DNA of 59,086 bases, filler included, from Sphacelaria rigidula (taxonomy: Eukaryota): assembly GCA_964200075.2 (NCBI GenBank). It is 10 parts of 10 records of this genome, joined end to end, with 100 filler letters (N's around TTAATTAATTAA, not from the genome) between each part and the next. Parts side by side here need not be neighbours in the genome. Positions count along the whole stretch, not along the records: positions 5,920 to 11,738 come from CAXNAA020024219.1; 9 more parts are not named here. One strand, 5' to 3'. Shown in pieces: positions 1,361 to 53,169 of the stretch. Made by a program: the position numbers and the translations under genes. Position 1 is the first letter of the stretch; every line of letters starts with the position of its first letter. The notes beneath the pieces are model-generated. The model was not told the origin of the DNA and ran no database searches. It worked only from the letters and a program-made list of their open reading frames with translations.

Positions 1361-1519
1361 ACCCTTCAGCTTCTAGACCGCGAGCATCGCCTCGGAACAG
1401 TTCCACGGGCTCGTGGTTTATGCATCCTGCCTTGAGCACGATCCCTAATGTGTTACCAGCATAGCTTCACACTGTAGTGTTGTTGAGGAACACGAACCAG
1501 ATAAATCAACAGCATCACA

Positions 1520-1816
1520 TGGTGAGACACCCCTGAGGCAGTGTGTGCTGTGGCTGTCCCTGGAAGTGGCGATACCAGGAAATGAAGCAACTCATTGGAG
1601 ACTGTCATCAACATGCAAGAATATCAGTACGCTTCGGTCCGAACAATCTGAGCAAGATGCACCTCACCCTTCATGCGACTCGTCGCACACATCACGGGGA
1701 TTCGTGCTTCGTGATTGATTGCTGGAAACCCCGGCGTACACCGTCCCAGCACTGTAGGGATGCGAGGTCAATGTCACATGACTGTGGCATGCAAGATCAT
1801 GAGTACACCCACCCCC
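1520..1816 (+). mobile_element. C-tailed dispersed element (long form A), 5'-truncated
   Basis: Aligns with 25700-26008 and ends ...GCAAGATCATGAGTACACCCACCCCC. Confidence 0.75.
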
Positions 1817-1849: not shown

Positions 1850-4165
1850 AATTTTCGAAGTTGGAGACTTTTCTGAATTTTCTCGTGTAGTATTATTCTT
1901 CGTTAGCAGTCGCAAGTCCTAGCGTCGCTAGATTTTTTGAAAAAATACAGGTCGTGCTGAAAACAAAAACCTCAATTTGTGTTCACGGGGTGAAATGTAG
2001 GAAGTACGTCGTCATTCAGGGGGTGTAATCCATCGTCACTTGTCCAAAAACACACTTTCTCGGCTCTAGGGCAATGAACAGGTGGGCATGAAAAAAACAA
2101 TCACTTTCGTGTTGTTCACGAGAGCTATCGGGATAGCTTCAATCGGGCTGGGTGGTCGCAGGGCCGCCCGTCAGTCGTTCAATATCGAGTGCAGATATGC
2201 TTTTGGTTCATTATGTAAAATGGATTCCTAGTATCTCCCGATCCCCAAACTTAGGGGCCAAACGTTCGTGGGGATGAGCGGCGGCACGCAACAACATTAC
2301 CATCAAAAATCGACAACTACGAAAAACTCACGAAAATCCTGTATTTCAGCTGAAAGCTGCTGGAGTATAATAGTCAGCATCAGCAGTTTTCAGAGTTCGT
2401 AGTTATTGTATTTTTTTTTAGCTTTTCTCGAGTGCTATTCTTCACCACTACTTGAAAGTGCTAGCGCCGGTAAAATTAGGGGGAAATCGAAGGCCGCGTT
2501 CAAACTGCAGAGCCCAGGTTGATGTTTTTGGGGCGGTATGGACTAGATACCCCGTTTATCAGTAGGGTGTTATTGGCCGTTCTTGGTTCAATGAAAGGAG
2601 TTTCCGGCTCTCCCGCAACGAAACGGTAAATATTTAGGTAAATGAATACGTGAAAAAAACTTCACAATAATGATCGAGATCGTGTTTCCCTCCTAAACTG
2701 CACAGACCTCAGTCTAGCATTTTCTGCGGATGGCCTCTTTTCGGGTTTTTTCGCATAACATTTTCCATGAGCACTCGAAAGTGCTGGTGTCGATAGTTTT
2801 GACAAAATAAGCAGACCGTGCTCAAATCACAATGCCCAAGCTGGTGTTGTGGAGGCGGTACGGAGTAAACACCCCGTTTATCAGGAGGGTTTTATTCACC
2901 GTGAATGGTCCAAGAAACATAGTTTTCCGGCTTTAGCGCAGTGAATGGGTGGGGTTTAAAAAAAATAATCATTTTTGAGTCTTGTGTCATGAGGAAGGAA
3001 GATTGAAATTACCACTGTGTCCTTTGCGGGGTTTTGCTTTGCTTTTTATCTAGCTAGCGCGTCAAAGCATTGTGTGCTTTCTCCGTTTGTTCGCTAGCTC
3101 GCACCAACATTGTGTGCTCCTGCGAGGTCAACCGCAACTGTGAATTACGCTTTTTGAGGCACCTTTGGTTTTTCTGATTTGAGGTGAGGGAGGATCGGGC
3201 ACCAGGCTGGTCATTGCTCTCTTGCTTTATTTCTTTCTCTTTTCTTCTTCGCGTTGCCTCCTCATGACTTGATGAGTGACACAAGCCTCAATTTTAGTTG
3301 CTCCTGAGATTTCATCGCAACTCAAATAGAGGTTCGTCTGGGTGGGTGAGTGTCATGAGGAAGATAGAGAGGCGTTATTTGTTCCCACAGACAACTTTGG
3401 GGCAGGTTGGCTTACATATCATCCGATCTGTCCACGGGAAATGCTCCCATAGCTCTGGGAAGATTGGTGTACAGACTGGCGTACCCTAGCTGGGGAAGGG
3501 TAGTGTACAGATTGGTGTGCCCTAGTCCCCGGGAGGCGAAACGCCTTCCCGGGCCGAGTTCAAAAATAGGTTGTTCTACCGTGCCTCATGCACCCTCGCT
3601 CACTCTTGAGCTACCCTTCGAGCCGGACCATCTGCTCCTACTGTTTACCATTGGTGAGAACAGTGTGCTGGGCGATCAAGGGAATAACCAGTCAGAGTTA
3701 AAAAGATATCAAGCCTTTGAGCTCCTTTTGTTTGTTGCTTCTGTGACCAACAGTCACGTGAATCTGCACGCGTGCATTTGCAGCTTGTTTTACTCGGACA
3801 CCTAGTGCGTTTGCGCACCTACTCAAGCTTGCAGCACATTGATCATAGCCAGGAAGGTATGGAACCTGTCTATACCCCCCTCTATATCACACTTGACGTG
3901 TATTATCGGGATTGAGTCGGTCCAGCGAAACTACCGAAAAGCTAGAACCTGGGGTTGCTTTTTCGCAGGACCCCCGAAGATCGGTCAAGCCCGTAAGTCA
4001 CTCAATATTGATCGCCGATATTTTTTCTTTCATTACTTGTGAAGAGGATAACAATATCCCCAGATGCCCATTTTCTGGCATCCAACAGTCACTGTGATGA
4101 TCGGTGGCAAGCGAACCAAATTGGAAAATTGAAAATTTGAGAACCTAAGAAACTACGAATTCTGC
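1850..4165. repeat. Diverged ~250-300-bp repeat modules, probably old non-autonomous DNA transposon arms
   Basis: Similar blocks at ~1880-2110, ~2420-2640 and ~2740-2980 (e.g. accccgtttatcag..ggg). A second module occurs at ~2140-2350 and ~3960-4165. Inverted ends face each other at ~2310-2410. Confidence 0.5.
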
Positions 4166-5819
4166 ATACTTCTGACGCTGACCACTGTAGTAGTGACCAC
4201 GGCTGGATCCCTGGGGGGTAGCAATCAATCAACCATGAATCAAGAGGAGATATGACTACAGTGATCGGCGTGTTTCTCCAGGGACATTTCCGTGATCCAC
4301 GAAGCCTGCTCTCCTCGACTGCCCACTGGAAGCAAACGGTGGCTTCTCAGACTCTCGTTTGTGGTGTCGTATATTTTCTTCGGGTATCTTCTGTTTGGGA
4401 TATTATACAACATTTTTGATATCATTAAGGGAAACCCCGCCGCCATGGGTGTTGGAAATCGTGCAACACCTAACTACGAGGCTAGCCCACTTTACCGATT
4501 CGCCAGGCTCATAGGTTTAGCGAATAGCCAATCGCCGAAAACCTAGCTGGACATGAAAAAAAGTGAAAATGAGTTGGAGTTTTGCGAAGATCACAACACA
4601 CACATCATGCTCCCGAATTCAGTTAAATTTTTTGGGAACTGGCCGTTTGCCTGACCTAGAAAGCCCAGCGAATCAGAGAGTAGGCAAGGCTTCTCATTAG
4701 CGTGATGCGCAGAGTCCAGCACAAACGACAGTGATTTTACCTGCTTTGATACCACGACCATTGTGAAAAATCCCACACGAAAAAATTGACAGGCAAAATA
4801 AGTGTTATGCCTATAAATAATAACCTTAGCCTATATGCATCCGACACCAGCGCGAGAAAAACACAGGGGAAAGGCGCTCCGTGGGTTCCACGAGTTCAAT
4901 GGTCAGGCACAACATCGAATCCGTATCTTTCGTGGGGGCGTCGTGCTGTCCTATGACGTCTGCGGTAGATAGATTTTACGCGAAAGGCGTGCCTTCATGA
5001 CAACGTCGGCGACCCCGCGGAGATTCTTCGTTTGCGACCTTCCCTGCTGTGACCTTCTGGGTGGCCATCTGCAGGCTGGGTTGCAGTTCTTCAGCGCAGC
5101 CCCGTGCCATCCCTTTTCTGTCCAATCTAAGAACGCGCCTTACGACGCTCATGTATACGTGCGCCATGGAAACGTCGAAACCGACGATGGGCGATGAGGA
5201 GCATGGCGGCAAGTCCCAAACGCTGTAGGGCTGGTTATCAGTCGGTTTGATTATCTTGTCTTGTCTCACTTATAACCCTTCCCGTTCTTCGGGATGAGTC
5301 CCTGGCCTCAAGGAATCGACCCACGTCTCCCCCGGTATACGCCTCACAATTTGATAGCGCAGATTGGATCAGCACTCTCGCACCGCGTGGACAGTCGTCC
5401 AACAAACTCAGTGAAACAGCGTATCATGATTGCTCACATCAGCACGCTTTCAAGGACGGAAATTAGATTCTTGCGAGAAGAAAGCCAAAGCAGGCGCATA
5501 TACCTTTGTGAGAATCGAAGCCGCGTTTTTCCCGACCTACTGGCGTCAGTTGTAACGTTACACCGCCGGAGTGCGGCGGTCGGTACCACGTACGGAAAAT
5601 CCAACTGCCGAGGATGACCTCAAAATGTTCATCAATGCAATATTTATTGGAGATTCGTTTCAACAATATACCAGTACATCACTAATAATTTGCTATATAT
5701 TGGTGTTGTGGCGACGCAGCCGCCACCCTCGCGCCGTAGGCACGAGTCAAAATGCCCCCCCCCCCCCCCCCCCCCCCGGGGGGGGGGGGCGCCCGCGGCG
5801 GGCCGCGGGGGGGGACGAA

Positions 5820-5919
5820 NNNNNNNNNNNNNNNNNNNNNNNNNNNNNNNNNNNNNNNNNNNNTTAATTAATTAANNNNNNNNNNNNNNNNNNNNNNNNN
5901 NNNNNNNNNNNNNNNNNNN
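5820..5919. other. Artificial contig linker N44-TTAATTAATTAA-N44 (first of nine)
   Basis: Identical 100-nt spacer with six-frame stops at 5820-5919, 11739-11838, 17658-17757, 23577-23676, 29496-29595, 35415-35514, 41334-41433, 47253-47352 and 53170-53269. The flanking contigs are 5819 bp (x8) or 5817 bp (x2). Confidence 0.97.
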
Positions 5920-8417: not shown

Positions 8418-8850
8418 GGGGATGGGGTGTACTCATAATTCTACATCCCGAAGCCATGATACCATTGATGTCGCATCCCTACACAGCCGGGAAGGAGCAT
8501 TGCGCCGGACCAGGCTGGCAGTCACCGAGCGCGAAGCGCTGGGGTGAGTTCGGCGAGTCGCGTGAAGGGTGAGCTGCATCCCACCATTAACACTGTTCGA
8601 CTCGACGCGTACTAATGATCTTGCATGTGGATATGACTGCTCCGTTCGAGTAAGTTGCTCCACTTTTCCGGTATCGCCACTTCCAGAGACGGCCACGGGT
8701 TACGCTGCTTCATGGGCGTCGGTCTCACAGTGTGAGCACTGCGTAGTACTATACCATCATACCCTTTTGCGGGGAGTTGAGGCTCTCCCACCCTGCACAA
8801 TATGATCCAACTCGACCACCATATTGGTTACCGCGAAAAAAAACGCAACT
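8418..8850 (-). mobile_element. C-tailed dispersed element (long form A), diverged
   Basis: Begins GGGGATGGGGTGTACTCAT on the plus strand and aligns in reverse with 25580-26000. Confidence 0.7.
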
Positions 8851-9390: not shown

Positions 9391-10966
9391 TCAGTTGGAC
9401 ATGAGAGCGTCGTAGAATGCCCCGAAGATGTACAGTGCTCTTTGTTCCAGCCATATGACTAGCTCCGGAGCTCGTCACATCGGACTGCAAAAGCGGCGAG
9501 TGCCATGCTCATTGTCATCACCGGGAGTATTTGACTTTCTGCACATTCGACGAGAGGCTACATATAACAAGGCTGCGCCAGCATGCTCAGCAGAGTTGTC
9601 GTGAGCTCGTCGTCATACATACCACCACATTCAAAAAGAAAATCTCGTGCAGCATCCTTAGAGCCAGATCTTTGGAGGATCGGCAGTCCCGAGTGCTCCC
9701 ATCGTGCGCATCACGTGGTTTTGCTCCAATCGGCGCCGACGACAATTTGAGCTCTTCCAAAGCAAACATTGCCGAGGATATCGTATGCGTATCCGCCCCC
9801 CCCCCCCCCACAAAGATCGGGGACGGGAGCGGAAGAGGGTGGAGGGGGACAAGCACGGCGAAAGAAAGAAAAACAAGACGCNNNNNNNNNNGTTGGACTC
9901 CCACCGGCGCAATCGACCAATCGAAATCCTCCCAAGCAAACCTTCCCCAGTCTACTGTACTCGCATCCGCCCCCCCCCCCCCGGCATGCATCGGGCACGG
10001 GTTCGAGTTAGAGTGGAATGCGTCAACCGCGATGATAGGACGACGAACTCGCGCCAGCACGCTCCCCCCAGGCGACAGTACGGCTTTTGTACGTCTTCGC
10101 ACATGTATAGCCACGAGTACCGCTAGCTAAGCGCGATCACCGGTGATGGTCGCCAGCATGCGTAACGATCGAGGATGCTGTTTTCGCAGCCCATCTACAC
10201 CCCACACCGCTAAAGCTGTGACACGGCCTTTTGGCCTCAACCCCATCTCCTGTTCGTATGTACGCAGTATTCTTCCTCCAAAACGAAGGCATGTTCCCGG
10301 AAAATTCCGCGAGACATGACGAGGATTCCCTTCCCGCCATTTCCCCTCATATTCTTCTGGGGTAGAATGTCCGTTCCGGTGGTTTTTCAGGGGCGCAATT
10401 CCCTTCCCATCCCGTCCCCAAATATTGGCCAATTTTCCTTTTCCTCCGTTCCCTTTTATGAATGGGTTACGGGAAATGGAACCGTCTCTTCTCGCTGTTA
10501 TGGGGGAACCAAGACTAGAAAATATCCTCCATGTTTTCCCCCGCCCCTCCTTGAGTCCTCACGGGACATCTGATCATTATTTTCCCTGGTACTGAGCGGG
10601 ACGTTCCGTCGAAGGGACGAAAATTACGGTCGTGGGTCTTGCGGGGAAGACAAAAAAATATCCCTGCATACATGTTGTTTGGAGTTTTTTTTTTTTTGCC
10701 AGACGTGGGATACAGCATGTGTTTTCTTGAAGCAAGTCGCGGGCAGTTTCGGCGCTTACTATATCAGACTGCCACCCTTGCAACGGTAGCGGGTTACGTG
10801 GACCGGTGACGAGCATCTTGACGATCAAAGGTCCCAACATGAGAGGAGTTTTGGTGTGAGTGAGAGATACAAACAGGTTTTTCTGGGTCGATGGTGGTAG
10901 GCCGCTGGCGGAAGCCAGCCTAATACCGATGAGACCCAAGGCAGTTGGCCGCGACGAGCCAGGGAA

Positions 10967-11165
10967 GGGGGGCGGGGGTATACTCATGATCTTGCATGCC
11001 ATCGTCACATGACCGTTGAGCTCGTATCCTTACAAAGCCGGGACGGAGCACACCGGGTTTTCGCCGGACCAGGCTCGTACGAGGGGGTGGGGGGGGGGTG
11101 TACTCATTTGTTGCTCGCCTTAGTTGTTTGACCATTGACCACGCATCCCTCTCGAGACGGAGCGG
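10967..11165 (-). mobile_element. Two adjacent C-tailed elements (truncated A at 10967-11075; mini form B at 11090-11163) set in G-tracts
   Basis: GGGGGTATACTCATGATCTTGCATG... followed by GGGGGTGTACTCATTTGTTGC...GAGACGGAGC. Confidence 0.8.
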
Positions 11166-11607
11166 GGAAGCGGGGGGAGGGGGGGAGATTCTCGAAGGAT
11201 TAGGCGCTGCTTATTATAGTCGCTCCGTCTTGTTGTGTTCTTTTTTTTTTTTTCTTTGCTGCCCTATGAACGTTATCGAATAGTTGGTTGGTTTTTCTGC
11301 TCGGTCGCCGGTCGCAGGATGAATCATACGTATATGTTCCCGACCTTCCACTCGTACGAGGTAAAGCACGGCACAGCACGCATCTGTGTGGCTATTATAC
11401 AGTGATTCTTTTAGCTGTTGGCTTTTCTATGATTCATACTGCATGAATCACGTGATGTGGCACTGTTGCTACTAGTGCTACTGGACGCTTGTTTTTTTGT
11501 TTTATTTTTCTCGTGCGTTGCGCTCCTCCCTCCTGTAAACGCTTTCAACACTGTTTCACTCTCCGCCTCCAACGGAGATGAGAGACCATGTAGGGTTTTC
11601 GCCTTTG

Positions 11608-14600: not shown

Positions 14601-16959
14601 GAAATGACCTAATGTTGATGACTGCTGTTGTTTTCAGTACGGAGGCTTCGGGTGCCTTGGCCACAATCTGGTCCACGGAGATTGTCTGTTTTTGTTGTTG
14701 ATATGAGCGGTACATCCCTCGATTACAATTGCGGGGTGTTCCGTCGTGCTTTTCGACGATATTTCATTGGACACTGGACCGTGCTTCAGGTTACCGCGTG
14801 TATTACCGATATGTAGTATATCGCCCCTTGAATACCACCCCCGGTAGTGATCCTCGGATTTTGGTTCAATCACGCGGCTGTTTTCAGTATTGCATTGCTC
14901 CTCCCTTCAATGTCACTCCCGATTGATTTTATTTCTGGGAGAGGGGGGGGAGGGGGAGGGGGTCGATTTTGTCATCATGAGTTTTTCTTGGCACAACCGT
15001 ATGCAGATTTCACGCGTGGGGAGGGATGGATCATGATTATGAATGAGAACGGCGCCACAGTAGTGTATCGTCCAGATTCATTCGACACAAGCAAGCGAGC
15101 ATCCTGGTTGCTCTGTTTTTGTTTCTCATGGGAAACGACGCTGAAAAATAATAGGGCATCTGTTCGCCGCCTTGTGAAGAAATTGTAAAAATAGTCGAAA
15201 CTCCATTTCGCCGTATTCGATTCGTCGTAAACAAGTTACGGAAGAATTGCCAGGCTCCGCAGCATGGCGCGGCTTCGCTGCCAGGTGTATAGTAGCAGCC
15301 GACATCAAAAGCCGATAAGAGGTTGGTATACAAGGTATCCTAAGTTACAACGGAGCAATTCAAGGAATATCGATAGGTTGTTGAAGCGCTAATCCCATGC
15401 TGAATGATGAATTTATAATTCAGCATGCGGGACAATGTGATCGACTTTTTGGGAGTGCGGCATAACTCCGTGCGAATTCCGCTCGCGGTACATTTCCATG
15501 TCGGGAAAGAAGAAAAAAACGCTCGCCAGATTATTCCTTGACTTTGCAGCACTCGATGCAGGGGGTTTATATCATTCGCTCGAGGCAATATTTGATTTCC
15601 AATTGCATGCAGCGTCATTGCTTTTTGTAGTCCAAGCGCGAAACTCGTTTTTTTTCGTTGTCTATGAATGATGTCCATGCAGATTTTGGGTATACTGATC
15701 TTCTTGGTCGGAGGCGGGTTTTTGGCTTTGTGGTACATCAAACACTACGCTACGAAGCTCGTGACCAAGAAGCATCGAGAGGTACGGGAGCGCGTCGTTT
15801 GTGCCGGTAGTAATAGGGATGTTTGCTGCAAGAAAATGACGTCCTGTTTTGAAGTCGTAAGAATGCTAGCGCGATAACGGAGATGTGCTTTGTGTGGAAA
15901 TGGACAAGAGGATGTGTTGAATTTTAGAATCGTTCATTTTGCTGGGTGTGACCCTCGAATCCTGGACCCTGTATCGTAAAGTAAAACAAGACTTTTTTTT
16001 TCGCCTGCTTTCGTTTATGTCATTGTCTTTTTCTGGTTCGTCATCCTCCGCTTTTGTCCTGCTCTCCGGCTGTGTGTTACAGTTGTCTCGCTTCTCTCGT
16101 CAAGCAAAGTTGGTCATCCCTGAACGATTAATGTTAGAAGTTGCCACTTTATTATGACGAATGGCGGTCCTTCCGTAATAGTTACTTTTATCCAATGTCT
16201 TCTCTACTGTAGTCGTTTGACACAAACGCGTCCCAGTGTGACGATGATAGTGGGCCCGTGCACAATCGTACAACAGGGTGTCGCCTGTATCCGCTGGCGT
16301 GTTCGTTCTACGTGCACCCCTAAGACCACAAGTGATCGGTGACCAGTGACCGGTGACCAGTGATATGACACCCAACTGACGTCGATGTGACTGCCTGCCA
16401 GTACTTTAGTAATTGAGCAGTCGAGTTGAGGTCTCTTTAGCATACCGCCGTTTCATTTCAAACGTTTTTTTCGATCTACGCCCCGACAGGATGCGGGTTG
16501 GGTACGAGGACATTGGAGTGAAACGGATCGGAGTCATGATCCAATCGCAGTGTCGTGGGAGAGGCGTTGGTGACGTCGCGGTAGAGTTCTTGGGAGAAAA
16601 TGACGTGCTTCGATCCGCGCAGGTGTCGAAACGTTGTGCACTGAACAACTGAGCTATATATCTCTATATCTTTGTGTGAAAAAAATACCACCTTGCAGCA
16701 TGAGTGGCAAGCGTCCAATCACGAGACCTGCAACCCATGTTGTGTTGGGTCAAGTGGCATACCCTTGATTGATACCGAAGAACAAGGAAGACGCGACCAC
16801 TTGACACCAAACAACGTATAGACTGACAGCAGTTACCGATATATCCCTCCGTAGTAATATGTACACACTGTAGCATCGGCGTCTGGAGCTTTCTACCATG
16901 AAGCGCACAGGTCCAGGAGACCACTTCGTGGTGAGGAATCCCCCCCCCCCCCTCCCCTG

Positions 16960-17601
16960 CCCGAGGTTTGTAGGGGCGGACCCCCCTATGAGGTTGGCGT
17001 GGGTTGGCGATGATGCTGTAAAACATCCCACTCACCGCTTGAGCTAGGCAATCGGGTCACCGATTTGTTTTTGCGCGCTTGCGTTGTTTTTGTGGCAGCC
17101 ATGATGGTGGTCGAGCTAGATCGCATTGTGCGGGGTGAGAGAGCTCAACTCCGCGCGGGGGGGATGATCATACTACGTAGTTTTCAAAGCGTGAGAGACA
17201 CCCATGAGGCAGTGTGTGACCCGTGGCTGTCTCTGAAAGTGACGATACCAGAAAACGAAGCAACTCATCGGAAGCTGTCATTCAAATCCACGAAAATCAG
17301 TAGGCTCCCGGCCGAACAACCTGAGCAGAATGTAGCTCACCCTTCATGCGACTCACCGAACACATCACGGCGCTCCGCGCTTCGTGATTGATTGCAAACC
17401 TGGTCTGGCGAAAACAGCGTGCTCCGTCCCGGCTTTGTAGGAATGTGAGATCCATGATCATATGACTACAGCCCACACACACACCCTTATTGTGGGCACG
17501 TTTTGACTCCCCCTCCCCCTTGATATATAGGTCAATGGTCTGATGACCATGGCAAACCCTTATCGTGGGCACTTTTTGACCCCCCCCCCCCCCCCCCCCC
17601 C
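16960..17601 (+). mobile_element. C-tailed element (long form, variant 3' end GGGCACGTTTTGAC), followed by a second short copy
   Basis: Aligns with 25470-25970. The end motif acccttatYgtgggcacKttttgac plus a C-run occurs twice (17483-17520 and 17556-17601). Flanks ccccctcccc(c)t occur on both sides of the long copy. Confidence 0.75.
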
Positions 17602-17757: not shown

Positions 17758-20300
17758 GTCTCCGTCTTCTTCTCCGATCCGGTCAGTCCAAAGGCCCCAA
17801 ACACGTCCACCATGATGGTCATCATCCTCGCCAGTCCGTCGGGAGATCTCGAGACGACGCCGGCATCGTCGGCATACAGTATTCCCCACACCGCTCTTCG
17901 TACACGTTCCAGCGGTGTTTCCGCCCCCCTCCCCGTCTACTCATCGAGATCTACCATGTCCTTGGTGATCACATCGTCCTCGCTGAACCGCGGCGAAGAA
18001 GATGTTGCAGCAGGAGAGGCAGCACATATCCTTGTCGCAGTCCCTGTGTGACTTCAAACCACTTCGAGAACTCCCCGTCGTCCATGCGTACGCGAACTTG
18101 CATACCGTTGTGGAATTGGCAGATAACTGTCATCATCTCATCCGGAATACCAGCTCGGGCCAGTACCTGCCACAAAAGCTCTCGGTCGACCGAGTCATAT
18201 GCTTCCTGGAGGTCGACGAGGCACATGTACAGCAATATTCTCCGCCGCCGTCCCAGCTCCTGGAGCCGGGGCACTACGAACAGCATATCGACAGTGAATT
18301 GGTCAGGTCAGAAGCCATTCTGTTCCTCCGGTAATATCCCGTGCGTTTCGCAGTGGTCGCTGAGGCGGTTGGCCACTATCTTCAGGAGCAATTTCCCTGC
18401 GTGCAATACCAGAGAGATCTCCCTGTAGTTATTGCAGATGAACCGTTCCGAATCCTTGTGCAGCACCTTGATCGTTGCATCTTTCCACTCCCGCGGGACC
18501 TCCCCTCCGTTCCACACCTCGATGAGAATGGTATGGAGGCGTTCGAGGACGATGGGTTCGGCGCGGCCGTCGATCTTGAGTAGCTCCACAGGAAGGGAGT
18601 CGTGTCCTGGCGCATTCTAGTTGTGCATCCCCCGGACTGCTCGTCTGGTTTCCTCCAGTGTTGGTGCTGCCCCAAGCGGTACCGAGTCACCGGTGGTTGA
18701 CGCTACCGGTCGCTGCTTCTCCTCCTCGATGATGGCTGGGTTCAGCGTGGGCGATTTGGCGTTTGGCGGGGTGCGGAAGAAGCTCGCCCACCGTTCAAGG
18801 ATGGCAATTTTGTTCCTCAGTAGGACGCCGTTCTCGTCCTTTATTAACTGCTGCTTCCCGTATTGCCTTCCACCAAGACCCACCGATCTCTCGAGGTATT
18901 TTTCCAGGCCTCTCATGTCGCGATCCTTGTAGATCGCTTCTAGCCTTGCCACATACCTCTCCAGATGTACATGGATGTCGTCGCCTATTGCTGCACGTAC
19001 GCTCTTACACGCGGCTCTGAGTGCTTTCCACGATGCTGGGGTCCGGTGATTCTTCATCAGTCGGCGTGCCCCCTGTCGCTCGGCGAGCGCTGCCTCCACT
19101 GTTGCTCTCGTGCCGGGGCTTTCACACCATTCCGGCATACATGGTAATCGTGTCTCTTCCGGGAGTACTGTCTGCGCTGCTTCGAGGATAGCTTCGGTAA
19201 ACTCCTTCGCGGCCGCCGGTGCGGTGGTGATTGGTTGGTATTTTTGCTCGCCAAGTTCATGTAGGAACCTCTCGGTCACGTGTCACCTTGCCATTTCGAT
19301 CTGCAGCTGCTGTCGACTGAATTGACGCTGCTTCGATTTGGTTCGTACTGGGCGATTGTGAGCAACGCGGCCACTGAGGTCGACAGTGGCCACCACCATG
19401 TTGTGGTCCGAGTCCGCTTTAGCCAGGGTCCGCTTTAGCCAGGGTCCGCTTTAGCCAGGGGTGCGGGTTGGGGGTATACGACTACGTTGCGCACTCTACC
19501 TCGATGTGCCTACCGGGTGAGTATGTGGTCTATGCGCTTGAGGTCGCTCGTGCGATTCCCCGCAACACCGTTGTATGTGTGCGAGATTCCGCCTTTGCGC
19601 GTGCTGAAGAAGATGTTCGTGGTGGCTAGTTTGTTGTCAGTTGCGAAAGTCAGCAGATCTTGCTGTTATGGTTCAGCCCATCACATCCATAGGCGCCTAG
19701 GACCCCTTCGTCCTCTACACCCCCTCCTACTTTGTCCCCCGTCCGCGCGTTGGCATCCATCAAAACGTACACACATTCCTTCGACGGGATTCGCTGTACG
19801 AGATCATCAAGTCCGTCCCAGAAAGCTTGTTTCGTTTTGTTCTTGGCGACTTCAGTTGGTACATACGCAGCTACGAAATTGATCGCTCCTCTCTGTCCCG
19901 ATATTTCCAACCGCATTGCCATGGAGCGCTCGTCAACATACTCAGTAGTATAGGTAGCGTTATTGCAAATCGATTCTTTCACGGCTATCTCCACACCGTG
20001 TTGCCCACCTGACTCGCTCCCACTGCAGAAGACTCCGAACTCTGCTGCTGTACAGTCTATTGGCCCCGCCCCCCTTGTCTCCTGCAGTCCTATCACCGAA
20101 ATGTCAAGTCTCGCAGCCTCGTACAAGACGCTGTAGTCTCGCCCCCATCCGTTGGCCCCTTTCACAGCTATGGTTCTGACATTGTAAGTGGCTACCTTAT
20201 CAACTCGACTCCGCTGTCTCGCCCGGGCTACTCTTGCTGCTTTCCTAGCAAGCCTCCGCCTCGCCCGGCCCCTCCTCTTCTTTTTTCTGCTCTTGTTCAT
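17758..20300 (-). pseudogene. RTE ORF (endonuclease-RT polyprotein) broken by stops and frameshifts
   Basis: Split over ORFs 19650-20300, 18617-19279, 18308-18589, 17969-18286 and 17758-17891. In-frame TAG at 18617-18619. Tandem triplication of gtccgctttagccagg at ~19412-19459. Confidence 0.88.
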
Positions 20301-23697: not shown

Positions 23698-23734
<37 letters not shown>

Positions 23735-25434: not shown

Positions 25435-26008
25435 AGCTTGATCCGGCGAGAACCCGGCGTGCTCCGTCCCGGCTTTCTAGGGGCGGACCCCCGATGGGGT
25501 TGGCGTCGGTTGGCGATGGCGCTATTAAACACGCCACCCACTGCGTAAGCTAGTCAAGCAAGTTACCATTGTTTTTTGCGCGCTTGCGTTTTTGTGTTGC
25601 GGTAAGCATGATGGTGGTCGAGCTAGATCATGTTATGCGGCGTGGGAGAACCTAAACTCCGCACAATGACCATGATCGTACTACGTAGTGTTTATATCGT
25701 GAGACACCCATGAGGCAGTGTACAAGATGTGGCTGTCTCTGGAAGTGGCGATACTAGACAATAAAGCAACTCATCGGAGGCTGTCATCCAAGTGCAAAAT
25801 AATCTGTAGGCTTCGGGCCGAACAATCCTAGCAGAATGTAGCTCACCCTTCATGCGAGTCGCCGAACACACCACGACGCTTCGCGCTTGGTGATTGAGCG
25901 CAAGCCTGGTCCGGCGAACCGGCGTGCTCTGTCCCGGCATTGTAGGGATGCGAAGTCAATGGTCTGATGACTATGGCATTCACGATCATGAGTACCCCCC
26001 CCCCCCCC
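25435..26008 (+). mobile_element. C-tailed element, longest copy (form A, ~570 bp)
   Basis: Ends CATGAGTA plus a C14 run. Flanked by CCCCCCTACTCCACAAAATA (25415-25434) and CCCCCCTACTTCACAAGATA (26003-26022). Confidence 0.85.
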
Positions 26009-26370
26009 TACTTCACAAGATATCGTGTCGCTACCGTTTTTCTCGCTTGTGAACGTAGCGCATCTCGAAGAGCAGCATCATGTTTACGATAAGCGGAGAG
26101 TTCTTCAGCCACATACCCTTCAAGCTGCGATGACCTTTCGAAGGGATACCACCCAGAAGCTACGCCGTTTTCATACCACACTGCCGTCGCATCACGCCCT
26201 TTCCTTCGTGAGGTCATAGCGTTTTCAAGCGTTTTCTCGCGTGGGTCCCTTCCAAGCTATATTGCTTCGAACCAAAACGCTAGGAGAGCGATTTTTCGGT
26301 GTCAACGAAACGGTATACCAACAAAATATGTTCTTCCACTCCTGTCTGTGCCCACCCGGAATCTGCTCAG

Positions 26371-37645: not shown

Positions 37646-38521
37646 TACTACTCAGACAGGAGGTGAAACACTACGCACAGGTTCAAACACCATGTTGAAC
37701 TGGCTGGCGATGCTTGGAGGTTCAACTTCTAGCTCGTTGCCTCATGATGCTCACGCTAATCCATGGCGAAAACGGATGCAAAATAGCAAAAACCCAGTCA
37801 TTAGAACTCGGTAATTACACCAATTATAACTGGTCATTACCATTGTAATGGTAATAATTATAATGGTTATATGAAGATTTTGGATAATGGTATCAAACCA
37901 TTTTTTACTGTTACCGGCTACGTATGCTACATACAGCACACAGCTACAATAGTAGACAATACAAAACATGCGGTAGCGGTCATATTTTTTCGTAAATAAT
38001 TTAAATGTGCAACTTCTGGGAATATCAAAATACCAAGCCAAGTGCGTCATGGTCTTGCCCTTGGAATTTGGCTCAAAGTTTACGTATTTTTCAGCTCTAG
38101 TAAAGCCAAATCGCGTAAAAACGTGCCTCCGGCACGGCGCCTCCAGCGGGGCCCTCCGTGGCCGCCTACGGCGGAATCCCATCTGCCGGGAGCGTACTCA
38201 TCATCATGCATGCCATAGTCATAAGATGCTGGGGGGGGGCTCTTTGGCTTGCGGCTTCGCCGCTCCATCACCAAACCATCATGTACCATTTAACTGGTCA
38301 ATGGTTGCATTACGCGTGACCATATCACTTCTTGATGGCTAGATAAACCGTTTCCGAGCTCTGCTACTCATATATTGTCGGGATCCGAACCCTCGACGAA
38401 GAGAAGTATACTCCACCCAAACTGGCCGAATGATGTGTACGTTGATCATCACCGGGGCGTGGCGCGGCGGGGCAGCGGTGTATGTATGTTTACTCGCATG
38501 GTATAGTTGATGGATGTTGAG

Positions 38522-41433: not shown

Positions 41434-41600
41434 GATTGTTCGGCCCGAAGCCTCCTGATGATCTTGCATTTGGATGATAGCCTACAATGAGTTGCTTTAT
41501 TGTCTGGTAGCGTCACTTCCAGAGACGGGGGGGGTATACTCATTCGTTGCTTGCCTTAGTCGTTCGACCATTGATCAAGCATTCCTTTCGAGACGGAGCA
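41434..41600 (-). mobile_element. Form A internal fragment (41434-41527) abutting a mini form B (41527-41600)
   Basis: gattgttcggcccgaagcc...cacttccagagac followed by GGGGGGGGTATACTCATTCGTTGC...GAGACGGAGCA. Confidence 0.75.
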
Positions 41601-42306
41601 TATGGGGGATACATGTTTGCGTATTGCTTTCAACTTCAAGAGCCGGAACCCGCAACAGCTACATGCGTCTGTTGTTGGGTCTCTGACTATTCACACATGT
41701 GTCTTGCTCGAACTCGCCGACTGCCGACATGTGGAACACAAGTGGTGTGCCCCTGGCGATGGCGCCGTCTCATATCCGCGCTCCCCAGCACATGAGAACC
41801 AGAGTCTCGGGTAAGTCATACGCCAAAACATCCATCGCGCCCTGAAGCGTTCATATCGGCGGCTGTCGATTTCTAAAGGATTGGCAGATGTTCCCGTGTA
41901 ATAGAGCAACGAGGGTAGGCTTTGCGGAACAAGAAGACCTCGTAGAGTCAATTGATGTAGGCTGGGCCGACTGCTGTCGTTCTGGTCTTACAGTACTCGA
42001 CGCCTGTCGTTCTATCCGTACCCCAAAACCAAGGAGCGAACGTGTCATATATCCTGCGCGTCCATTCGCAGCAATACCCGCTGAGTATATCCGAATCAAA
42101 AGGCGCCTGAAAAAGTCCTTTACCAATGGTATCAAGGGGATCACAACCCACACGTAAAACCTCTCGGCGTTCATGTATGGGGGTCAATTATTCAGTACGG
42201 GGTCACGGTTCTCGGCCTCGGCTCTTCCTTGTACAGGAACCACCGGCGGTGGTCGCAGCTGCTACTGTAGACCCTGCTGCTGCTCTTGCGCATAATCCTG
42301 CTGCTT

Positions 42307-44652
42307 TTATTTTTTAGCCTTTCCAACGTTCTCCGTGTCTCGGGGCCCGATCATCTCACTCTCGTGTCCATCCATTCCCCCCCCCCGCTGCTGCTGCTGC
42401 TGTTGCTGCTGCTCTGGCGCCGGCCTTTCCCGTCCATCCTCCGCAATAGCCACGGGAACAGTTGGGTCGGCCTGATTTGCAAATACCTCTTGCATTTGGC
42501 TTTCCATTTGGTTGTCGACCGCTGAACCCGAGTACGAGAAATCCTCGTGCTGCTGCTGCTGCTGCTGCTGTCGAGGCAAGGACGCCGGGGGGGCGTAGAT
42601 ATGCCCTCCTTTCCGCCTAGAGAGGGTGGTCGTGGTTGAGGCGGTCACAGAAGGGGACGTCGGTGGAGGGGGGCATGGAGGCGAAGCGGAGTGCTGTTTC
42701 AATAATGCAGTAGATGGTCCTCAATATAGTATACCTACATGGACCATATACCCTGTGTACACTGCGGTTCTTGCTAAAGCACGTACAGTTTGATGTTTCC
42801 TAGATGTCCCTTCACACAGTACACCTGTGTCTTGTGCCGACGTTCCACAGCATGCTCCTTGGGGGGCGCACTAGCTTCATTTTCATTGGTCTTAAGTGTG
42901 GGGCAAGTATCCGAAGGAAGTGTGTTATAGCCTCTATGTAGAGTATTCTTTGTAGCCTCAGCCTAACCGCAGTCCATGCAGGGTCGCCTCTTCGTATCTG
43001 GATCCGTGCTTTTTTTGGACACTTGATTTTTCTCCACTTCAGCGTCTCCCATGAGAAGCTCTTTCACCTCAGGTTATTTCAGCTATTGACTGCACCGGTG
43101 ATGCTCTTACTCTTACAGGGGTACTCATGGTCTTACAGGGGTGGGGGGGGGGAGGAGGGGGCGTCCTCGTGGGGGGTACCGCTTGCTCCGTACACGCACT
43201 TGCTTAGGTTTTAGTGGCCGGAGACCTCAAGGGTACGCATTTACGATACGTCTCTTCTAGAAAAAATATTTTTCATGTCGCCGGCCAAAAAATACGAATG
43301 ACTAACACGCAAAAAGGGGTAACATTTGCGAGAAATTCCTGAATTCTACAAGGATAACTCAAACGCAGGGGCCAAGGGGCTCGCAACTCTTTTATTCTCG
43401 GGTTCGCTGAGCGTCCTGCCGCGAGGTCAAAAAGATAAGTTTCGCGGTGTCAGGCTGAAACGAAAACCGTACATGAATCCAAGGTTAATGGGTCGATTGG
43501 GAACCCACCCATCGCACCCATATCTGCGTTCGAGGCATCGTTGAATAAGAGTCCGTGTCTACGGGTCGTCTTGTGCTATGTCGTGGACTGCTTTTCCCCC
43601 CTTCAACTCGAGATGCAGGTGTTTCCCCTGGGTCTCCCTCGTCAATGTACCATCAGGATATGGTTCTTTCACTAATAATGGATTCACCCTAATTGCTACC
43701 AATGAGTGTGAAAAATAGCTATGGCAGTCATATATAAAATATTGATGATTATCATCAGTACATGAATTAAATTGCCACATTACTACTGAAAACATAGCGA
43801 CCACTCATCGCCGCGCCCCGGTGGTGTAATGGTCCGACTGTCGCCATTAGGGTGGAGAGAACGAGGGTTAGACTCCCAAAGCGTTGGGTTTTCTCTTCGT
43901 AGTGCGTAATTTCCATCGTGGAAAGCGTGAGAACGTGAGTAAACAAAGTGATCGATTGAGTTTGTTTGACGCGAGCTGACGCCGTGCGGGAGTGGTGATA
44001 GTCATGACCCAATCCGCGAGACCAATATGCAAGGCGTGTCCTTGGGGAGAGATGGGATGATCCCTTGAGACTAGTAGATCACGGACTCGTCCCGAGAAAG
44101 GGGAGGGGTTCAAAGTGCAAAAAATAAAATCATCCTGACCAGCTTACCTTGCGCTTCCAACCGCGCCCCGGTGGTCTATCTCGTACACCAGTAGCCGGCT
44201 ACAAAAGGTGTGGACGCGAATCCCAACATCAACTGTCCCTTTTCAGCGTAATCTAGTTTCTTGCCGTTGAAAGGGTGAGGGTGTCGATAGCAACGCAAAC
44301 GTGGCGGGAGTCGACGCCGTGAGAGAGAGCTTGTTCACTCGACAATACCAAGAAATCAGGCGTACAGCGGGGGGGGAAAGACGGTGTTGATCCCTTGAGG
44401 CTAGGGACTCATCCCGACAAACGGGAGGGATCAAGACATGACGTGGGAGGCGGGGAATAAATGGAGCTAGTTATCTTCGTTCATGCTCTTGCCCATCCCT
44501 CACCGGAGGAGATTGATCTCCGCCCTGATCGCGTCCAATTCGCGTGCTTGAAGCTTCACCAGAGCCACCAAGCGGTCCCTTTCCTCGGCCTCTCTTCGCA
44601 GTGAAGGTCCCTTCGATCCCAGGGCAGCGCTACCGCCGCTATTGTTCAACTC
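42307..44652 (-). CDS. CFAP44: Cilia- and flagella-associated protein 44, last two exons (5'-partial)
   Basis: Exon 44504-44652 (EERDRLVALVKLQARELDAIRAEINLL, phase 2) splices to exon 42307-42616 (RRKGGHIYAPP...). The joined LQA..I.A...EI.LLRRKG matches the conserved CFAP44/WDR52 C-terminus as recalled. Confidence 0.8.
43810..44130 (+). mobile_element. tRNA-derived SINE family 1, full length (~320 bp), in the CFAP44 intron
   Basis: Pol III A/B-box head, body shared with 49257-49630, and an A-rich tail. A diverged neighbour lies at ~44160-44435 and a 3' fragment at ~53780-53865. Confidence 0.85.
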
Positions 44653-44982
44653 CTGGAAAAAATGGATTGAAGGTGCACGCAGCAGACTGACTAGTTTTGT
44701 CACAACGACCAAAGAACGAGTGGAAGCACCTGCCGTCAACGTGGGATATATTGTACACAGATTCAAGAGTGGGTACCCATATGTCACGGGGTGTGGGAAC
44801 GGCCGCTGAAGAACACGAGAAAATGACCGTAACATGCGAACACGATGTGGGTCCAGGGGCTACGGGAGAGTTGATAGTCATGGTCCAATGCTCCAGTGCA
44901 GAGGCTGAACAGGCATCGAGGGAAATATGGATGGATCCCCTTGCACGATAACCTTGTCCCGAAAGCCAGACGGGGAAGGGGG

Positions 44983-45050
44983 GGCGTACTCATTTGTTGC
45001 TTGCCTTAGTCATTTGACCCTTGACTACGCATCCCTTTCGAGACGGAGCA
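44983..45050 (-). mobile_element. C-tailed mini element (form B)
   Basis: Flanks AGACGGGGAAGGGGG (44968-44982) and AGACCGGGAGGGGGG (45053-45067) match at 13/15. Confidence 0.82.
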
Positions 45051-45082
45051 TAAGACCGGGAGGGGGGAAGTAAGAAGCAGGC

Positions 45083-49256: not shown

Positions 49257-49630
49257 GCCGCGCCCCGGTGGTATAATGGTCCAACTGTCGCCGTTAGGGT
49301 GGAGAGAAGGAGGGTTCGGTTCCCGATGCGTTGGATTTTTCTTCGTAATGTATGATTTCCACCGTGGAAAGCGTGAGAACGTGAGTAAACAAAGTAGTCG
49401 ACTGGGTTTGTGTGACGTGAGTTGACGCGGTGTGGAAGCGCTGACAGTCATGACCCAATCCGCGAGACCAAACTGCAGGGCGTGTACCGGGGGAGATATG
49501 GGATGATCCCTTGAGACCACGTACTCGTCCCAATGAAGGGTGTACTCACGATCATGCATGCCATGGTCATTAGACCATTGGTGAAGGGGAGGAGTTGAAA
49601 GTGCGACAAATAAAATATTAAAATAAATAA
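49257..49630 (+). mobile_element. tRNA-derived SINE family 1, full length, carrying a ~45-bp C-tailed insertion at 49537-49580
   Basis: A/B boxes, shared body and an aaataaaat tail; has an extra segment relative to the 44085-44118 copy. Confidence 0.85.
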
Positions 49631-51513
49631 GTAATCCCTCGTCGGGTACAGTACAAAGCGGGCCTTTCTCTCGGCGAGTCCATCTTGGACTCCTGGTGAG
49701 CTGTTTCTGCACCTGTGCCTGCATGGGCAGTTCTCCGATTGGCGGCTCTGGACGCAGCAACCTCCCGTTTGTGGTGGCGGTCCGATTCTCGTTTGTCTTG
49801 GCGTCGCTACGTGTCCTCGACTCTCACCTCTTCCGCCCCTTTCTCGCCTGCCATATGTTGAGAAAAAAATCTCGAAATGGTTTCAACTAAACAAAACGCT
49901 CAAGAATCAATCAAAACATTAGAAAAACGAGAGCAAAATCGGACATGGTCGAGGGTCCGTACAAACTTGACCACACCAACTCATGCGACCGACGAAATAT
50001 GTGTCGGATCGTGTTTACATACATGTACCGCCGCATCCGTGTGGCGTCATTTTCCACTCCAAATGCTTCCCCTCCCTCCCCTTTTAATCCTGGTTATTCT
50101 TAAACGCGCCCCCTTCCTCGAGACAAATCCTCAGCGACAGCGACAGAAAATCAACCGGTTTCTCCCCTGGTACATAGATACATACGTGACATTTCGCTTC
50201 CTCGACCCTTGGATCAGCACTCCCCAACAGAGGCTAGTTAATCGGCGTCGGGCTTCAACGTGTTCATGGTTGACACAATTTACAACAATCGCTATCCCTA
50301 ACCCTAACCCTAACCCAACGCATACCGAGAACCCTCGGGTAAGGGCGGTAGATAGATCCCAAATCGGCGTCTGCGGCGCCGATTTAAACGAAAACGCGTT
50401 CTGCGATTGCGAGGAGCACACGGGACTGTCAGCCCTACCAAATATCCGATTCTTGTTGTACACACTCAAATCAAGTAACATCAACCATGAACATGTTGTA
50501 GCCCAACGCTGGTTAACTCCACTGCCCCAACAGGACGTCAACTTTCACCGACGCAGTACCTTGCGTCAGATCCTGTTCAAAAAAGATCCTATCCGTTGGG
50601 ATTCAAACTCGCCGCATCCACCCTACCCAGTCGTTGACCTCCGAGTTTGGGGTTGGTGCCCAAGCCAACGCGAAACCCCAAGCGCTCGCCTTTGGTGAAA
50701 TGACAACATATTATATTTTCATTGGACTAATGCCGTGATAGCCCCCCAACAAAACGTGCACCGGAGACCGTCCGACAAACCGGCTGCGATCCCACGATTG
50801 GGCTCGTTTGCGGCGATTTCGCCCACATGAGAGGCGTGTAGCAGTCCGAAATCAGCTTTAACTAACGCCCGCATGAGTCGCGCCGTGCAGCACGAAACCA
50901 GGTCTAACGGCATGTATGATCATCGCCTCCCTGCACTTTTTGGGCCGGTTCGGGGGGGGGCTATCTCGCCAGCAGGCATTGTCAAGAAGTGTACTGCGTA
51001 CAGTGTGAACTGTATTGTTGCAGTAGACGCAATAGTCGATACTGTACGCTGTCCGATTTTTGGACGATGTAATGTAGTTTCCAGGCCGTGGATTCGTACG
51101 CAAGTGCGGCGGCGCTGACCGGAGGCTCCGGCAACTGATATCCCGCCGCATAATCTACTCTTGCTCGCTCTGGTTCGTGTATTGCTCTTGGGGTGAGGTT
51201 TGAACAGATTTTGCGTCGACCACGGAGTGACGGGGAAGAGACGTCCTTGGCTCGCCATCTCCACAAGACGGCGCTGGAGCTTGAGTCGCGAGAGCTTGGG
51301 CGCCTTGACACGGTATGCTCGGGTAGTGTCGAATCAGAAGTGGGAGCTGGTTCACGCTTGTCACCCAAACTTCATTCATCCGCGAATGCTCACGCCGATT
51401 CTTTCAGTTGAACTGTGAAAAAATTTCACACACGTATGCCATGCAACATTACGGAACTTTTCATGGATGGAGTCTTTCGACTTCCTTTTTTTTCGCCACT
51501 TATGGGGGGAACG

Positions 51514-51586
51514 GTGCTCCGTCTCCAAAGGGATGCGTGGTCAATGGTCAAATGACTAAGGCAAGCAACAAATGAGTACGCCCCCC
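51514..51586 (+). mobile_element. C-tailed mini element (form B)
   Basis: Perfect 14-bp TSD CCACTTATGGGGGG at 51496-51509 and 51587-51600, with extra Cs before the 3' copy. Confidence 0.88.
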
Positions 51587-53099
51587 CCACTTATGGGGGG
51601 TCGCAGGGTTGTGAGGTGTTGGAGGGATCACATGTCCTTCTGGGACGCGCAGTGATTGACGAACAGGGAACAAATCGAAAGACCTCGTTCTAAAAGGTTT
51701 TGTAATGTTCCGTAGCATATATCTTACTCCAAGAATTGGCGTGAACATTTACGCTCTTGTGCGGTGAAGTGAGCTTGAAAGTTACAAACTCCAAACTACT
51801 TGATATTTTTAGTACAAAAACGCGTTTTGCATATTGACGCCAGAACGAGACCAGCGCATCAACTTTGGGAGTTGGATGCGTACATTTTTTTGTTTTTTTC
51901 AACTTCGAGACATTCTGAACCTGCCTCTGGGGGTCTTCACACCAGGACCCCCGGTCGAGAGCGGAGAAAGCTTGAAATGCTTCTCAACAATATATTTTAT
52001 GATGTTCAACAATATATATTTTTCATTTGAAGCGCCAATACCTATCGAATTACCAAGTCTGAGGGCAATCTGAGCTTTTCCATGACAGATGTAAGGGAAA
52101 CCGCCAAAGGCTAGATGTGTCTTGGTGCATGTCATCAGTGGAAATGCGACGACGCCGAAACCCCACGCCCCCGAAATAGCACGGTTTTGGATATAATTCG
52201 ATCCAATTGTAACCGTTGTCCAACCTGTTTTTCCCCGTGGATTCCCGAGCTGATGGCGACTACTACAAGTTGAAGCACGTGGATATTGAGTAGAAAATGT
52301 GTTCAGAGTTTTCCATTTTTAATTTCAGAACAATTTAAAGGCCGTTGATTGGGTCGAAGTACCTTCCCGCCCCTTAGCGCCACCGCTATGGCCTTGAGCA
52401 AAAATCCAGCTATGTCACCCTCACCAGTTGTCCATGGCGGTCAGTATGATACCACGTATGCGATTATTGGGTAGGTGATGCGGGAGGCATTTGCTGATGA
52501 CACAATTTGGGCGACAAGCATGACACCAGCTCGCATTTAGACAAGCACGTGTACGTCTCCATGAATATGTGGGTGATTTTCTTGAGTGTCTCTCTGACCG
52601 GCGGTGCCATTACTGCTTCTGTTCCCCCCCCCCCTGATGTGGCATATTTCCGATGATTTCTGACCCGGTGCGCGTAGGTAGGCTGTGCGTTTCTTCTTCT
52701 GCGGTACCATTCGAAGCCATTTTTATTCCGGTCATTTCAACATACAGTACATTCGGACATGTTTGTTCTGGCCGCGGCGCGATACTGTGGAAAATGACGC
52801 ATAATGACGCAGTTGTTTTGCTTGCGCTCGTTCCTGTGGCACAACACCCAACGACTGCAAGCAGACGGGACGTGGTACTACGTGCATACCCCGGAGTTTA
52901 TATACATACTGTATTCCTATACTGAGGGTCGGCTCTGTGGTACTTGTACTTACTTTTTTATACCGTCAAGGCGCGCTGTTCGTTTTGTGAGCTGTGTGCT
53001 TCGTTTGGTTGTTGTTGACGTCGTTGATAGCGCGGGAGTCTTGGGGTTATTGATAACCCCCCCCCCCACACACACACTCACACAGACACGCACCACCTC

Positions 53100-53169
53100 A
53101 GCAATAGAGAGCAGAAGTCATATAGTGGCAGAATGTGAACTGTACAAGGAGGAACGGTACGTGCTAAAG
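53100..53169 (+). mobile_element. Fragment of a LINE C-terminal zinc-knuckle region
   Basis: Translates as AIESRSHIVAECELYKEERYVL, the E..H...EC half of a LINE ORF2 CCHC motif; cut by the contig end. Confidence 0.55.

Follow-up and report, generated by a model that had tools for sequence, protein, structure and literature searches.

On the minus strand, positions 10977-11054 of the stretch analysed here read GGUGUGCUC...GAGUAUACC and are followed by a C5GC6 tail. The stretch (hereafter the window; 59,086 nucleotides of Sphacelaria rigidula DNA) is composed of ten 5819-base pieces, joined by N44-TTAATTAATTAA-N44 at 5820-5919 and at eight further places, one every 5919 bases, and its adjacent pieces need not be neighbours in the genome. 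The terminal motif is found in 10 copies in the window, against 0.39 expected. The 10977 copy shares 81% identity with the copy at 25903-26001. The coordinates of these elements, which belong to forms designated A, B and C, are collected in Table 1.

Table 1. Positions of the C-tailed elements, their fragments and a fragment of the partner LINE in the window.
Feature	Position	Strand	Remarks
3'-terminal domain of 5'-truncated form-A (RTEX-N1-like) non-autonomous retroposon	10977..11054	-	covariance-model match 10971-11057, 28.6 bits, E 2.3e-05
C tail (C5 G C6) of the 10977 copy	10967..10978	-	first two C also counted in the closing stem
Remainder of the truncated form-A copy, ~105 nt in all	11055..11082	-	begins directly after the C tail of the neighbouring element
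Form-B mini-element: 67-nt domain 11099-11165 and C10AC5 tail 11083-11098	11083..11165	-	head-to-tail with the form-A copy
Full-length form-A element, ~560 nt + C14 tail; terminal domain 25921-25998	25435..26008	+	~20-nt TSD beginning C6 on the flanks
Form-A copy, 5'-truncated, ~294 nt	1519..1812	+	
Form-A copy, 5'-truncated and decayed, ~425 nt	8424..8848	-	
Form-B mini-element; 100% identity to the LINE 3' end in L002	35317..35391	-	TSD C7TGTACAAT
Form-B mini-element, older; 89% identity to L002	37575..37646	-	
Form-B mini-element, C8 tail	41527..41601	-	
Form-B mini-element, C7 tail	44978..45051	-	C-rich imperfect TSD
Form-B copy, 5' end 7 nt further upstream, C8 tail	51509..51588	+	TSD CCACTTATGGGGG(G)
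Form-A tail, 5'-truncated to 42 nt	49541..49582	-	TSD CCCTTC(A)
Extreme-3'-end remnant, 10 nt	43122..43131	-	exact 10-nt TSD (CCCCTGTAAG) on the flanks
Form-A tail, 5'-truncated to 38 nt	38191..38228	-	
Form C, two adjoining copies of a third tail variant	17417-17520, 17531-17601	+	
Internal fragment of the partner LINE; 85% identity to L002 element positions 3429-3495	53100..53166	+	piece end cuts the fragment

A covariance model was built with the helices of the initial annotation (P1 GUGCUC/GAGUAC, P2 CGUCUC/GGGAUG and P3 GUC..UGGUC/GACUA.GGC). At E≤0.001 cmsearch returned 15 matches across the window and four outside contigs; ten of them, of form B, had been used for building the model, and the five form-A copies outside that set score 25-52 bits. 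The search at E≤10 yielded 31 matches, and the 16 with E>0.001, among them partial true copies at 17530-17553, 49535-49608 and 17413-17478, were left out of the pair counts.

The copies bear the marks of retroposition. Form A ranges from a full copy of ~560 nt (+C14) to truncated ones of ~425, 294, 105, 42, 38, 15 and 10 nt, and form B always appears in the window as a tiny element of ~67 nt plus a C run. TSDs of 6-20 nt that begin with a C run flank seven of the ten copies examined, the other three being unclear, and the 10-nt insertion sits between exact 10-nt duplications. Elements are nested in each other's C tails; the 10977 copy directly follows the C10AC5 tail of the mini-element at 11083-11165. 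The 5' end of form B is sharp: five of the six window copies share a start within one or two bases, at the U of UGCUCC, and the sixth extends upstream by another 7 nt. In four of the five sharp-ended mini-elements UGCUCC is preceded by A, where the LINE described below has G; this A may be untemplated or may come from a master copy.

Form C keeps helices 2 and 3 as they are in form A and differs in the last ~25 nt (...GGGCACKUUUUGA + Cn), its end being ...CCCUUAUYGUGGGCACKUUUUGA with a C run of up to C22. The GGGCAC of this end still pairs with GUGCUC, with two pair-preserving transitions (U-A to U.G and G.U to G-C). No further form-C copy was found in the window or in 101 loci.

At the start of full-length form-A elements (25441-25482 and 16953-16990, both on the plus strand) the 5' half of the element's own 3' domain is repeated in part. 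The repeated part covers the 5' strand of the closing stem as well as helix 2 and its loop, and may have arisen by template switching or go back to a tandem ancestor. The 59 kb also contain 46 C/G homopolymer runs of at least 7 bases (e.g. 1-35, 23699-23733, 5755-5789 and 17580-17601), including G35 at the starts of two pieces and a C23 directly followed by G12. Some C runs follow sequence unrelated to forms A, B and C (...GUCAAAAUG-C23 and ...AUCCG-C13/14), and other C-tailed families may exist.

Proposed helices and tests of the fold

The domain had initially been described as a covarying, cloverleaf-like structure with a closing stem and three inner arms. In the 10977 copy the 9 bp of the closing stem are confirmed, the last two pairs taking the first two C of the tail. 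The stem claimed for the copy at 25921-25998 (+) forms eight of its nine pairs and has one C.C mismatch, and across the copies 5-6 pairs are conserved. Arm 1 was described correctly for form B (CGUCUC-GAAA-GGGAUG); its form-A version (CGUCCC/GGGAUG) is intact in the 25921 copy, whereas the 10977 copy has AGGAUA and retains 4/6 pairs. Arm 2 (GGUCA..UGACY) would leave a 2-nt loop in the 10977 copy, where RNAfold pairs GUCAU with AUGGC instead. Arm 3 (CAUG..CAUG) exists in the 10977 and 1733 copies, i.e. in two of the five form-A copies, and is missing in the 25921 and 8423 copies and in every form-B copy.

Since MAFFT misplaced forms A and B relative to each other at helix 2, the sequences were aligned with the covariance model instead, a choice that favours the structure. 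The alignment comprises 15 sequences, 14 of them distinct, and 20 pairs (278 cells), and its power is low, with two to three subfamilies from one window and four contigs. Pairing is found in 90.3% of the 278 cells, compared with 29-51% when the partners are slid; such a contrast is expected, since the structure was derived from the very sequences compared. Covariation scored 0.073, with 0.074 for shuffled alignments, and 316 of 500 shuffles reach the observed score. Both sides have changed in one pair only, which 388 of 500 shuffles match. RNAalifold found no compensatory pair either among the 18 of form B alone (ten sequences), where it favoured a different closing stem (UGCU/AGCA), or among the 14 of forms A and B together (15 sequences). 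In the latter case P1 (5 bp) and P2 (6 bp) were recovered at -5.27 kcal/mol and P3 was not. The folding energies of ten copies lie within those of their shuffles (z-scores -2.13 to +1.12), and the form-C ends, with z-scores of -1.5 and -1.3, fold no better than shuffles. Neither significant covariation nor folding beyond that of shuffled sequences was thus found, the two outcomes that the initial annotation had itself set against its proposal, in a test whose power is low with 14 distinct sequences.

Other features are consistent with a signal that is structured or conserved in blocks. In the alignment fitted to the structure the consensus sequences of forms A and B agree in 39/40 paired and in 17/35 unpaired columns. 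The loop of P2 has 9 nt in form A and is GAAA in form B, and its stem is kept; the sole systematic difference between the two forms within stems is C-G versus U-G. The sense strand folds better than the antisense strand in all 15 copies, and the proposed helices contain G.U pairs and are therefore restricted to the sense strand. At its 5' end the mini-element begins exactly at the base of P1. Two or three helices in the domain are plausible; a covarying tRNA-like cloverleaf is not supported.

The resemblance to tRNA did not hold in direct searches. ARAGORN found no tRNA-like gene in the window, and the domain has no Rfam match at gathering score, nor any at E≤10 on 25880-26020 and 10950-11190 or at E≤1 on the four outside loci. 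In place of a 7-bp acceptor stem and a terminal CCA there are a closing stem of 5-6 conserved pairs and C runs of variable length (C7-C22) that lack CCA; at best three helices form, of which the third is not conserved. The nucleotidyltransferase that had been invoked for the C tail is dispensable as an explanation. Four independent contigs carry genomic LINE copies in which the C run is already in place, and a C run likewise opens the upstream TSD. This argues for a tail that is templated and pairs, at the nicked target, with a run of G; tail addition by a CCA-type enzyme is unsupported. The strict SINE head is absent as well, with no tRNA, 5S or 7SL match in the window (ARAGORN, Rfam), and for RTEX-N1 the annotation of the Ectocarpus library comes to the same verdict (PMC12477816).

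The LINE that ends in the domain and its tail-only copies

The pattern of the domain was scanned for in outside contigs. Among metagenome contigs 8 loci were found, two of them true (L002 and L005), and among contigs of prokaryote genomes 83 stretches, of which two (L071 and L076) were judged true by their C tail and upstream motif; the scan of viral contigs gave no true copy. Full LINEs are present on L002, with an ORF of 1253 aa, and on L076, with one of 1382 aa; each ORF has Exo_endo_phos and RVT_1 domains. Both ORFs span the entire form-B domain, the stop codon being the UGA of AAAUGAGUACG, 5 nt before C8-C13, and the module is formed by the last ~20 codons of the single endonuclease/reverse-transcriptase ORF. 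L005 and L071 are shorter pieces that end in the same way. The window has six form-B copies, which match the terminal 71-81 nt of the L002 element at 89-100% identity. Form B is the final ~74 nt of a full LINE with a single endonuclease/reverse-transcriptase ORF.

The last 22 residues, encoded by the domain, are identical in L002, L076 and the protein P0121, with one change in P0122 and three in P0123 of Ectocarpus, and all these proteins end at the same residue. Identity over their C-terminal 200 aa is 69-85%. The changes in P0122 and P0123, translated back from protein and assuming single-base changes, would be G.U to G-C, U.G to C-G and a change in a bulge, which is no more than a weak hint. 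In a search of representative proteins 75 of 153 match the last 45 residues; these are mostly short products of decayed copies and were not used for base changes. In the LINE itself coding and RNA-level constraints on the domain are inseparable, and the conservation of form B could come from the C-terminal peptide. No ORF was found in form A, where a 1-nt insertion shifts the UGA out of frame; the conserved blocks of this non-coding form are therefore not a coding effect.

Several observations concern the sources of these LINEs. L071 and L076 are filed under bacterial MAGs (Sulfitobacter sp. MAG and 'uncultured bacterium' MAG) yet carry a eukaryotic LINE and its partners, and these contigs are most likely algal DNA binned by mistake. 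A stretch resembling the domain, but diverged, inverted and lacking a C run (GGUGCUCCGUCUC... ...CAUGAGUUC), lies upstream of the full LINE on the reverse strand of L076, at ~355-420. For the 3' part of the L002 LINE (1.6 kb), 73-87% of the sampled 31-mers are present in sequencing runs X1-X14, labelled as eight different organisms and one marine metagenome. Several labelled organisms thus have almost the same LINE, being either close relatives or the recipients of a recent spread.

The window contains one more LINE, at 17758-20309 (-), with APE endonuclease and RT, an in-frame stop and frameshifts, which is cut by the start of its piece. Its best named relatives are proteins of Ectocarpus sp. 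(65-74% identity), and other proteins reach 79%. This degenerate element belongs to a different family, with only 25% identity to the L002 ORF, and, being cut before its 3' end, carries no information on the tail.

Logan contigs from four runs were aligned along L002:600-1400, to which 21,660 contigs of run X6 fit. Loose ends gather at place 752 in 123 contigs and at place 754 in 146 contigs; their flanks are rich in G and correspond to C runs on the sense strand, and 26 contigs link 750-755 back to 681-690 and represent head-to-tail mini-elements. The summed depth of X6 is 1.57-1.76 million over 708-761 and 0.16-0.65 million from 816 on, contig depth being a measure of neither copy number nor expression. 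The RNA library X17 gives 81-90 thousand against 0.5-21 thousand for the same two regions, so that the domain is covered more deeply than the ORF, although contigs reveal neither a discrete small RNA nor its ends and level. None of the 40 variant places listed falls within 681-787. Tail-only copies are a large class, and the 74-nt element that consists of the domain and the C run alone, reported here, is amplified and abundant and has a sharp 5' end. Its amplification lends indirect support to a possible need for the 3' module in retrotransposition.

Proposed mechanism, alternatives and relation to known elements

Taken together, the domain at 10977-11054 is probably the 3'-terminal cis-module of a brown-alga family of RTE-X-type non-LTR retrotransposons that end in a C run. 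The suggestion that the domain acts at the RNA level as a 3' signal for the RT stands in so far as the module is common to an APE+RT LINE and its non-coding partners, which show TSDs, 5' truncations and an amplified 74-nt element; the tRNA mimicry attached to that suggestion is not supported. As in pairs of the stringent type, the LINE and its partner share the 3' end, and TSDs as well as 5' truncation are present. We consider recognition of the module by the RT, combined with pairing of the C run with a G run at the nick, to be the most likely mechanism, and one that the evidence makes fairly probable. The LINE protein would bind the module on the sense RNA, and the endonuclease would nick the bottom strand at a G run. 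This G run would pair with the C run of the RNA and prime reverse transcription; the cDNA would often be truncated at its 5' end, and a staggered second nick would produce the TSD beginning with a C run. The non-coding partners (form A of ~560 nt, like RTEX-N1, form C and the 74-nt mini-element) carry the module and would use the machinery of the LINE. The family itself, the overlap of its ORF with the module, the tails, TSDs, truncations and tandem arrays are observed; we infer the binding of a protein to the module and the priming by a G run by analogy with LINEs of the stringent type, and the two or three helices may or may not be required.

In L1 the poly(A) tail is complementary to a T-rich nicked target, the TSD begins with the base of the tail and 5' truncation is common. 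The same homopolymer tail facing a complementary target homopolymer, a TSD that starts with the tail base and 5' truncation are seen here, with C/G in place of A/T and, in contrast to L1, with a tail encoded in the element and not added by polyadenylation.

It is conceivable, though rather unlikely, that recognition is relaxed and depends on the C run alone, much as L1 relies on poly(A). The domain would then owe its conservation to coding for the C-terminus of the LINE protein and to a recent origin of the partners from the 3' end of the LINE, and the helices would be incidental. Covariation that does not rise above shuffles, folding energies within shuffles and a domain that is coding in the LINE would all agree with this. 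So would form C, which has a different last ~25 nt and still a C tail, and for which the C run alone might be sufficient. The 46 C/G runs in 59 kb, some of them after unrelated sequence, also point in this direction, as does another element with a C-rich terminus and C-rich site, unknown7-N1, in the Ectocarpus table (PMC12477816). Relaxed recognition does not account, however, for the non-coding form A, which matches the LINE in 39 of the 40 paired columns and only 17 of the 35 unpaired ones, or for helix 2, the loop of which was swapped (9 nt versus GAAA) while the stem was retained. Further points against it are that both changes in the 3' strand of the closing stem of form C keep the pairing and that the mini-element starts exactly at the closing-stem base.

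The other two readings are far less probable. The RT of the Mauriceville retroplasmid initiates on a 3' tRNA-like structure, and here, too, a structured 3' end adjoins the site where reverse transcription starts. By analogy, a CCA-adding-type nucleotidyltransferase could add the C tail to a tRNA-like cloverleaf after transcription and the RT could start there; the closing stem that adjoins the 3' tail and the internal hairpins are in line with this, and the sharp 5' end of the 74-nt mini-elements at the closing-stem base would fit RNase-P-like processing. We regard such a model as very improbable in view of the absence of any ARAGORN hit and of any Rfam family, tRNA included, at E≤10, the two or three helices only, with the third arm unconserved and a closing stem of 5-6 bp instead of 7, and a C7-C22 tail without CCA that the genomic LINE copies of four independent contigs encode and that recurs at the beginning of the upstream TSD. 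Unlike the retroplasmid, the present element has no tRNA-model match, CCA or cloverleaf, and is a nuclear LINE with an endonuclease and target priming. The idea that the domain is the terminus of a cut-and-paste or rolling-circle element, acting at the DNA level and recognised in double- or single-stranded form, hardly deserves more credit and is, if anything, even less probable. It would explain a conserved terminus beside a homopolymer, and C-rich insertion sites are noted for an unclassified Ectocarpus element as well (PMC12477816). Against it, the terminus lacks a counterpart in inverted orientation, the copies have one constant and one variable end (lengths of 10 to 560 nt), the TSD varies from 6 to 20 nt, the domain closes an APE+RT ORF, and its helices depend on G.U pairs and fold on just one of the strands.

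If the cis-module reading is followed further, the last 74 nt and the C run might exist as a separate RNA and constitute a retrotransposition module complete in itself, a proposal we put forward as speculative and rather doubtful. Processing, a stalled exonuclease or protection by the bound protein could define the 5' end of this RNA at the closing-helix base. The 74-nt module would then be one of the shortest LINE-dependent retroposons. As the stop codon is located 5 nt before the tail, within the 3' strand of the closing helix, a ribosome completing the protein has to melt the module. If so, this melting could couple the termination of translation to the loading of a new RT onto its own RNA.

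C-tailed RTE-X LINEs with short partners are already catalogued in brown algae. The Ectocarpus annotation (PMC12477816) describes RTEX-1_Ec32 by 'single EN-RT ORF; (C)n 3'' and a 'C-rich' TSD, RTEX-2_Ec32 by '(C)n termini/TSD', RTEX-N1_Ec32 (604-607 bp) by '5' head unknown', 'can be present in tandem' and '60 bp 3' end 83% RTEX-1/RTEX-2', and RTEX-N2_Ec32 (188 bp) by 'similar 3' tail'. RTEX-N1 and RTEX-N2 share their last 60-100 bp with the RTEX LINEs, and RTEX-N1 is given there as the most abundant family in Ectocarpus with >6000 copies (Genome Biol 2025, PMC12477816). A recently active RTEX-1 is reported for Saccharina (PMC4421812). In the literature searched no paper text on a poly-C LINE tail was found, the (C)n tail being recorded only in the supplement table of PMC12477816. 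The family of the window resembles the RTEX_Ec32 entries in its single EN-RT ORF, (C)n 3' end, C-rich TSDs, tandem copies and very high copy number, and form A resembles RTEX-N1 as a ~600-bp non-coding partner with an unknown 5' head and the last 60-100 bp common with the LINE; the match is one of annotated features, not of sequence. In contrast to the present description, the entries of that table give nothing on secondary structure or on an ORF running into the shared tail, and its 7 rows marked C-rich include no ~74-bp tail-only family. The RTE-X label should be read as provisional, since it reflects the feature match to the Ectocarpus annotation and a 67%-identical C-terminal match to an Ectocarpus protein.

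A wider comparison is offered by a review that covers 58 SINE/LINE pairs with shared 3' ends and describes stem-loops in stringent-type tails (PMC3747384). In such pairs (eel UnaL2/UnaSINE1, RTE/Bov-B with Bov-A2, RTE1-N1_LA) the partner carries the LINE 3' end, as it does here, a stem-loop near the 3' end is typical, and the 3' repeats are thought to serve priming and slippage (PMC3747384). According to the same source RTE partners are built from LINE ends, often from 5' and 3' parts and without a Pol III head; its table of 3' repeats of plant and green-alga LINEs has no (C)n entry (PMC3747384). The tail of the present elements differs from those of the reviewed pairs in being a C homopolymer, not a short repeat or poly(A), and the shared module lies inside the ORF and not in the 3' UTR, with no compensatory changes seen in it. 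Three points are new here: this placement of the module within the ORF, whose stop codon falls in the closing helix, a third tail variant that keeps the helix and an abundant 74-nt mini-element.

With regard to the original claim the main result is negative, a tRNA-like covarying cloverleaf and an enzymatic addition of C being unsupported. The elements themselves are of broader relevance, as C-tailed RTE-X elements and their partners rank first among the repeats of brown-alga genomes, Ectocarpus having >6000 copies of RTEX-N1 (PMC12477816). Knowledge of the module in the ORF, of the C/G-run target and of the 74-nt form allows better repeat annotation, since tiny copies and tandem arrays are easily missed. 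C-tailed elements also explain at least part of the many C/G homopolymer runs in brown-alga genomes, and the 74-nt module offers a compact natural substrate for testing how LINEs of the stringent type choose their RNA.
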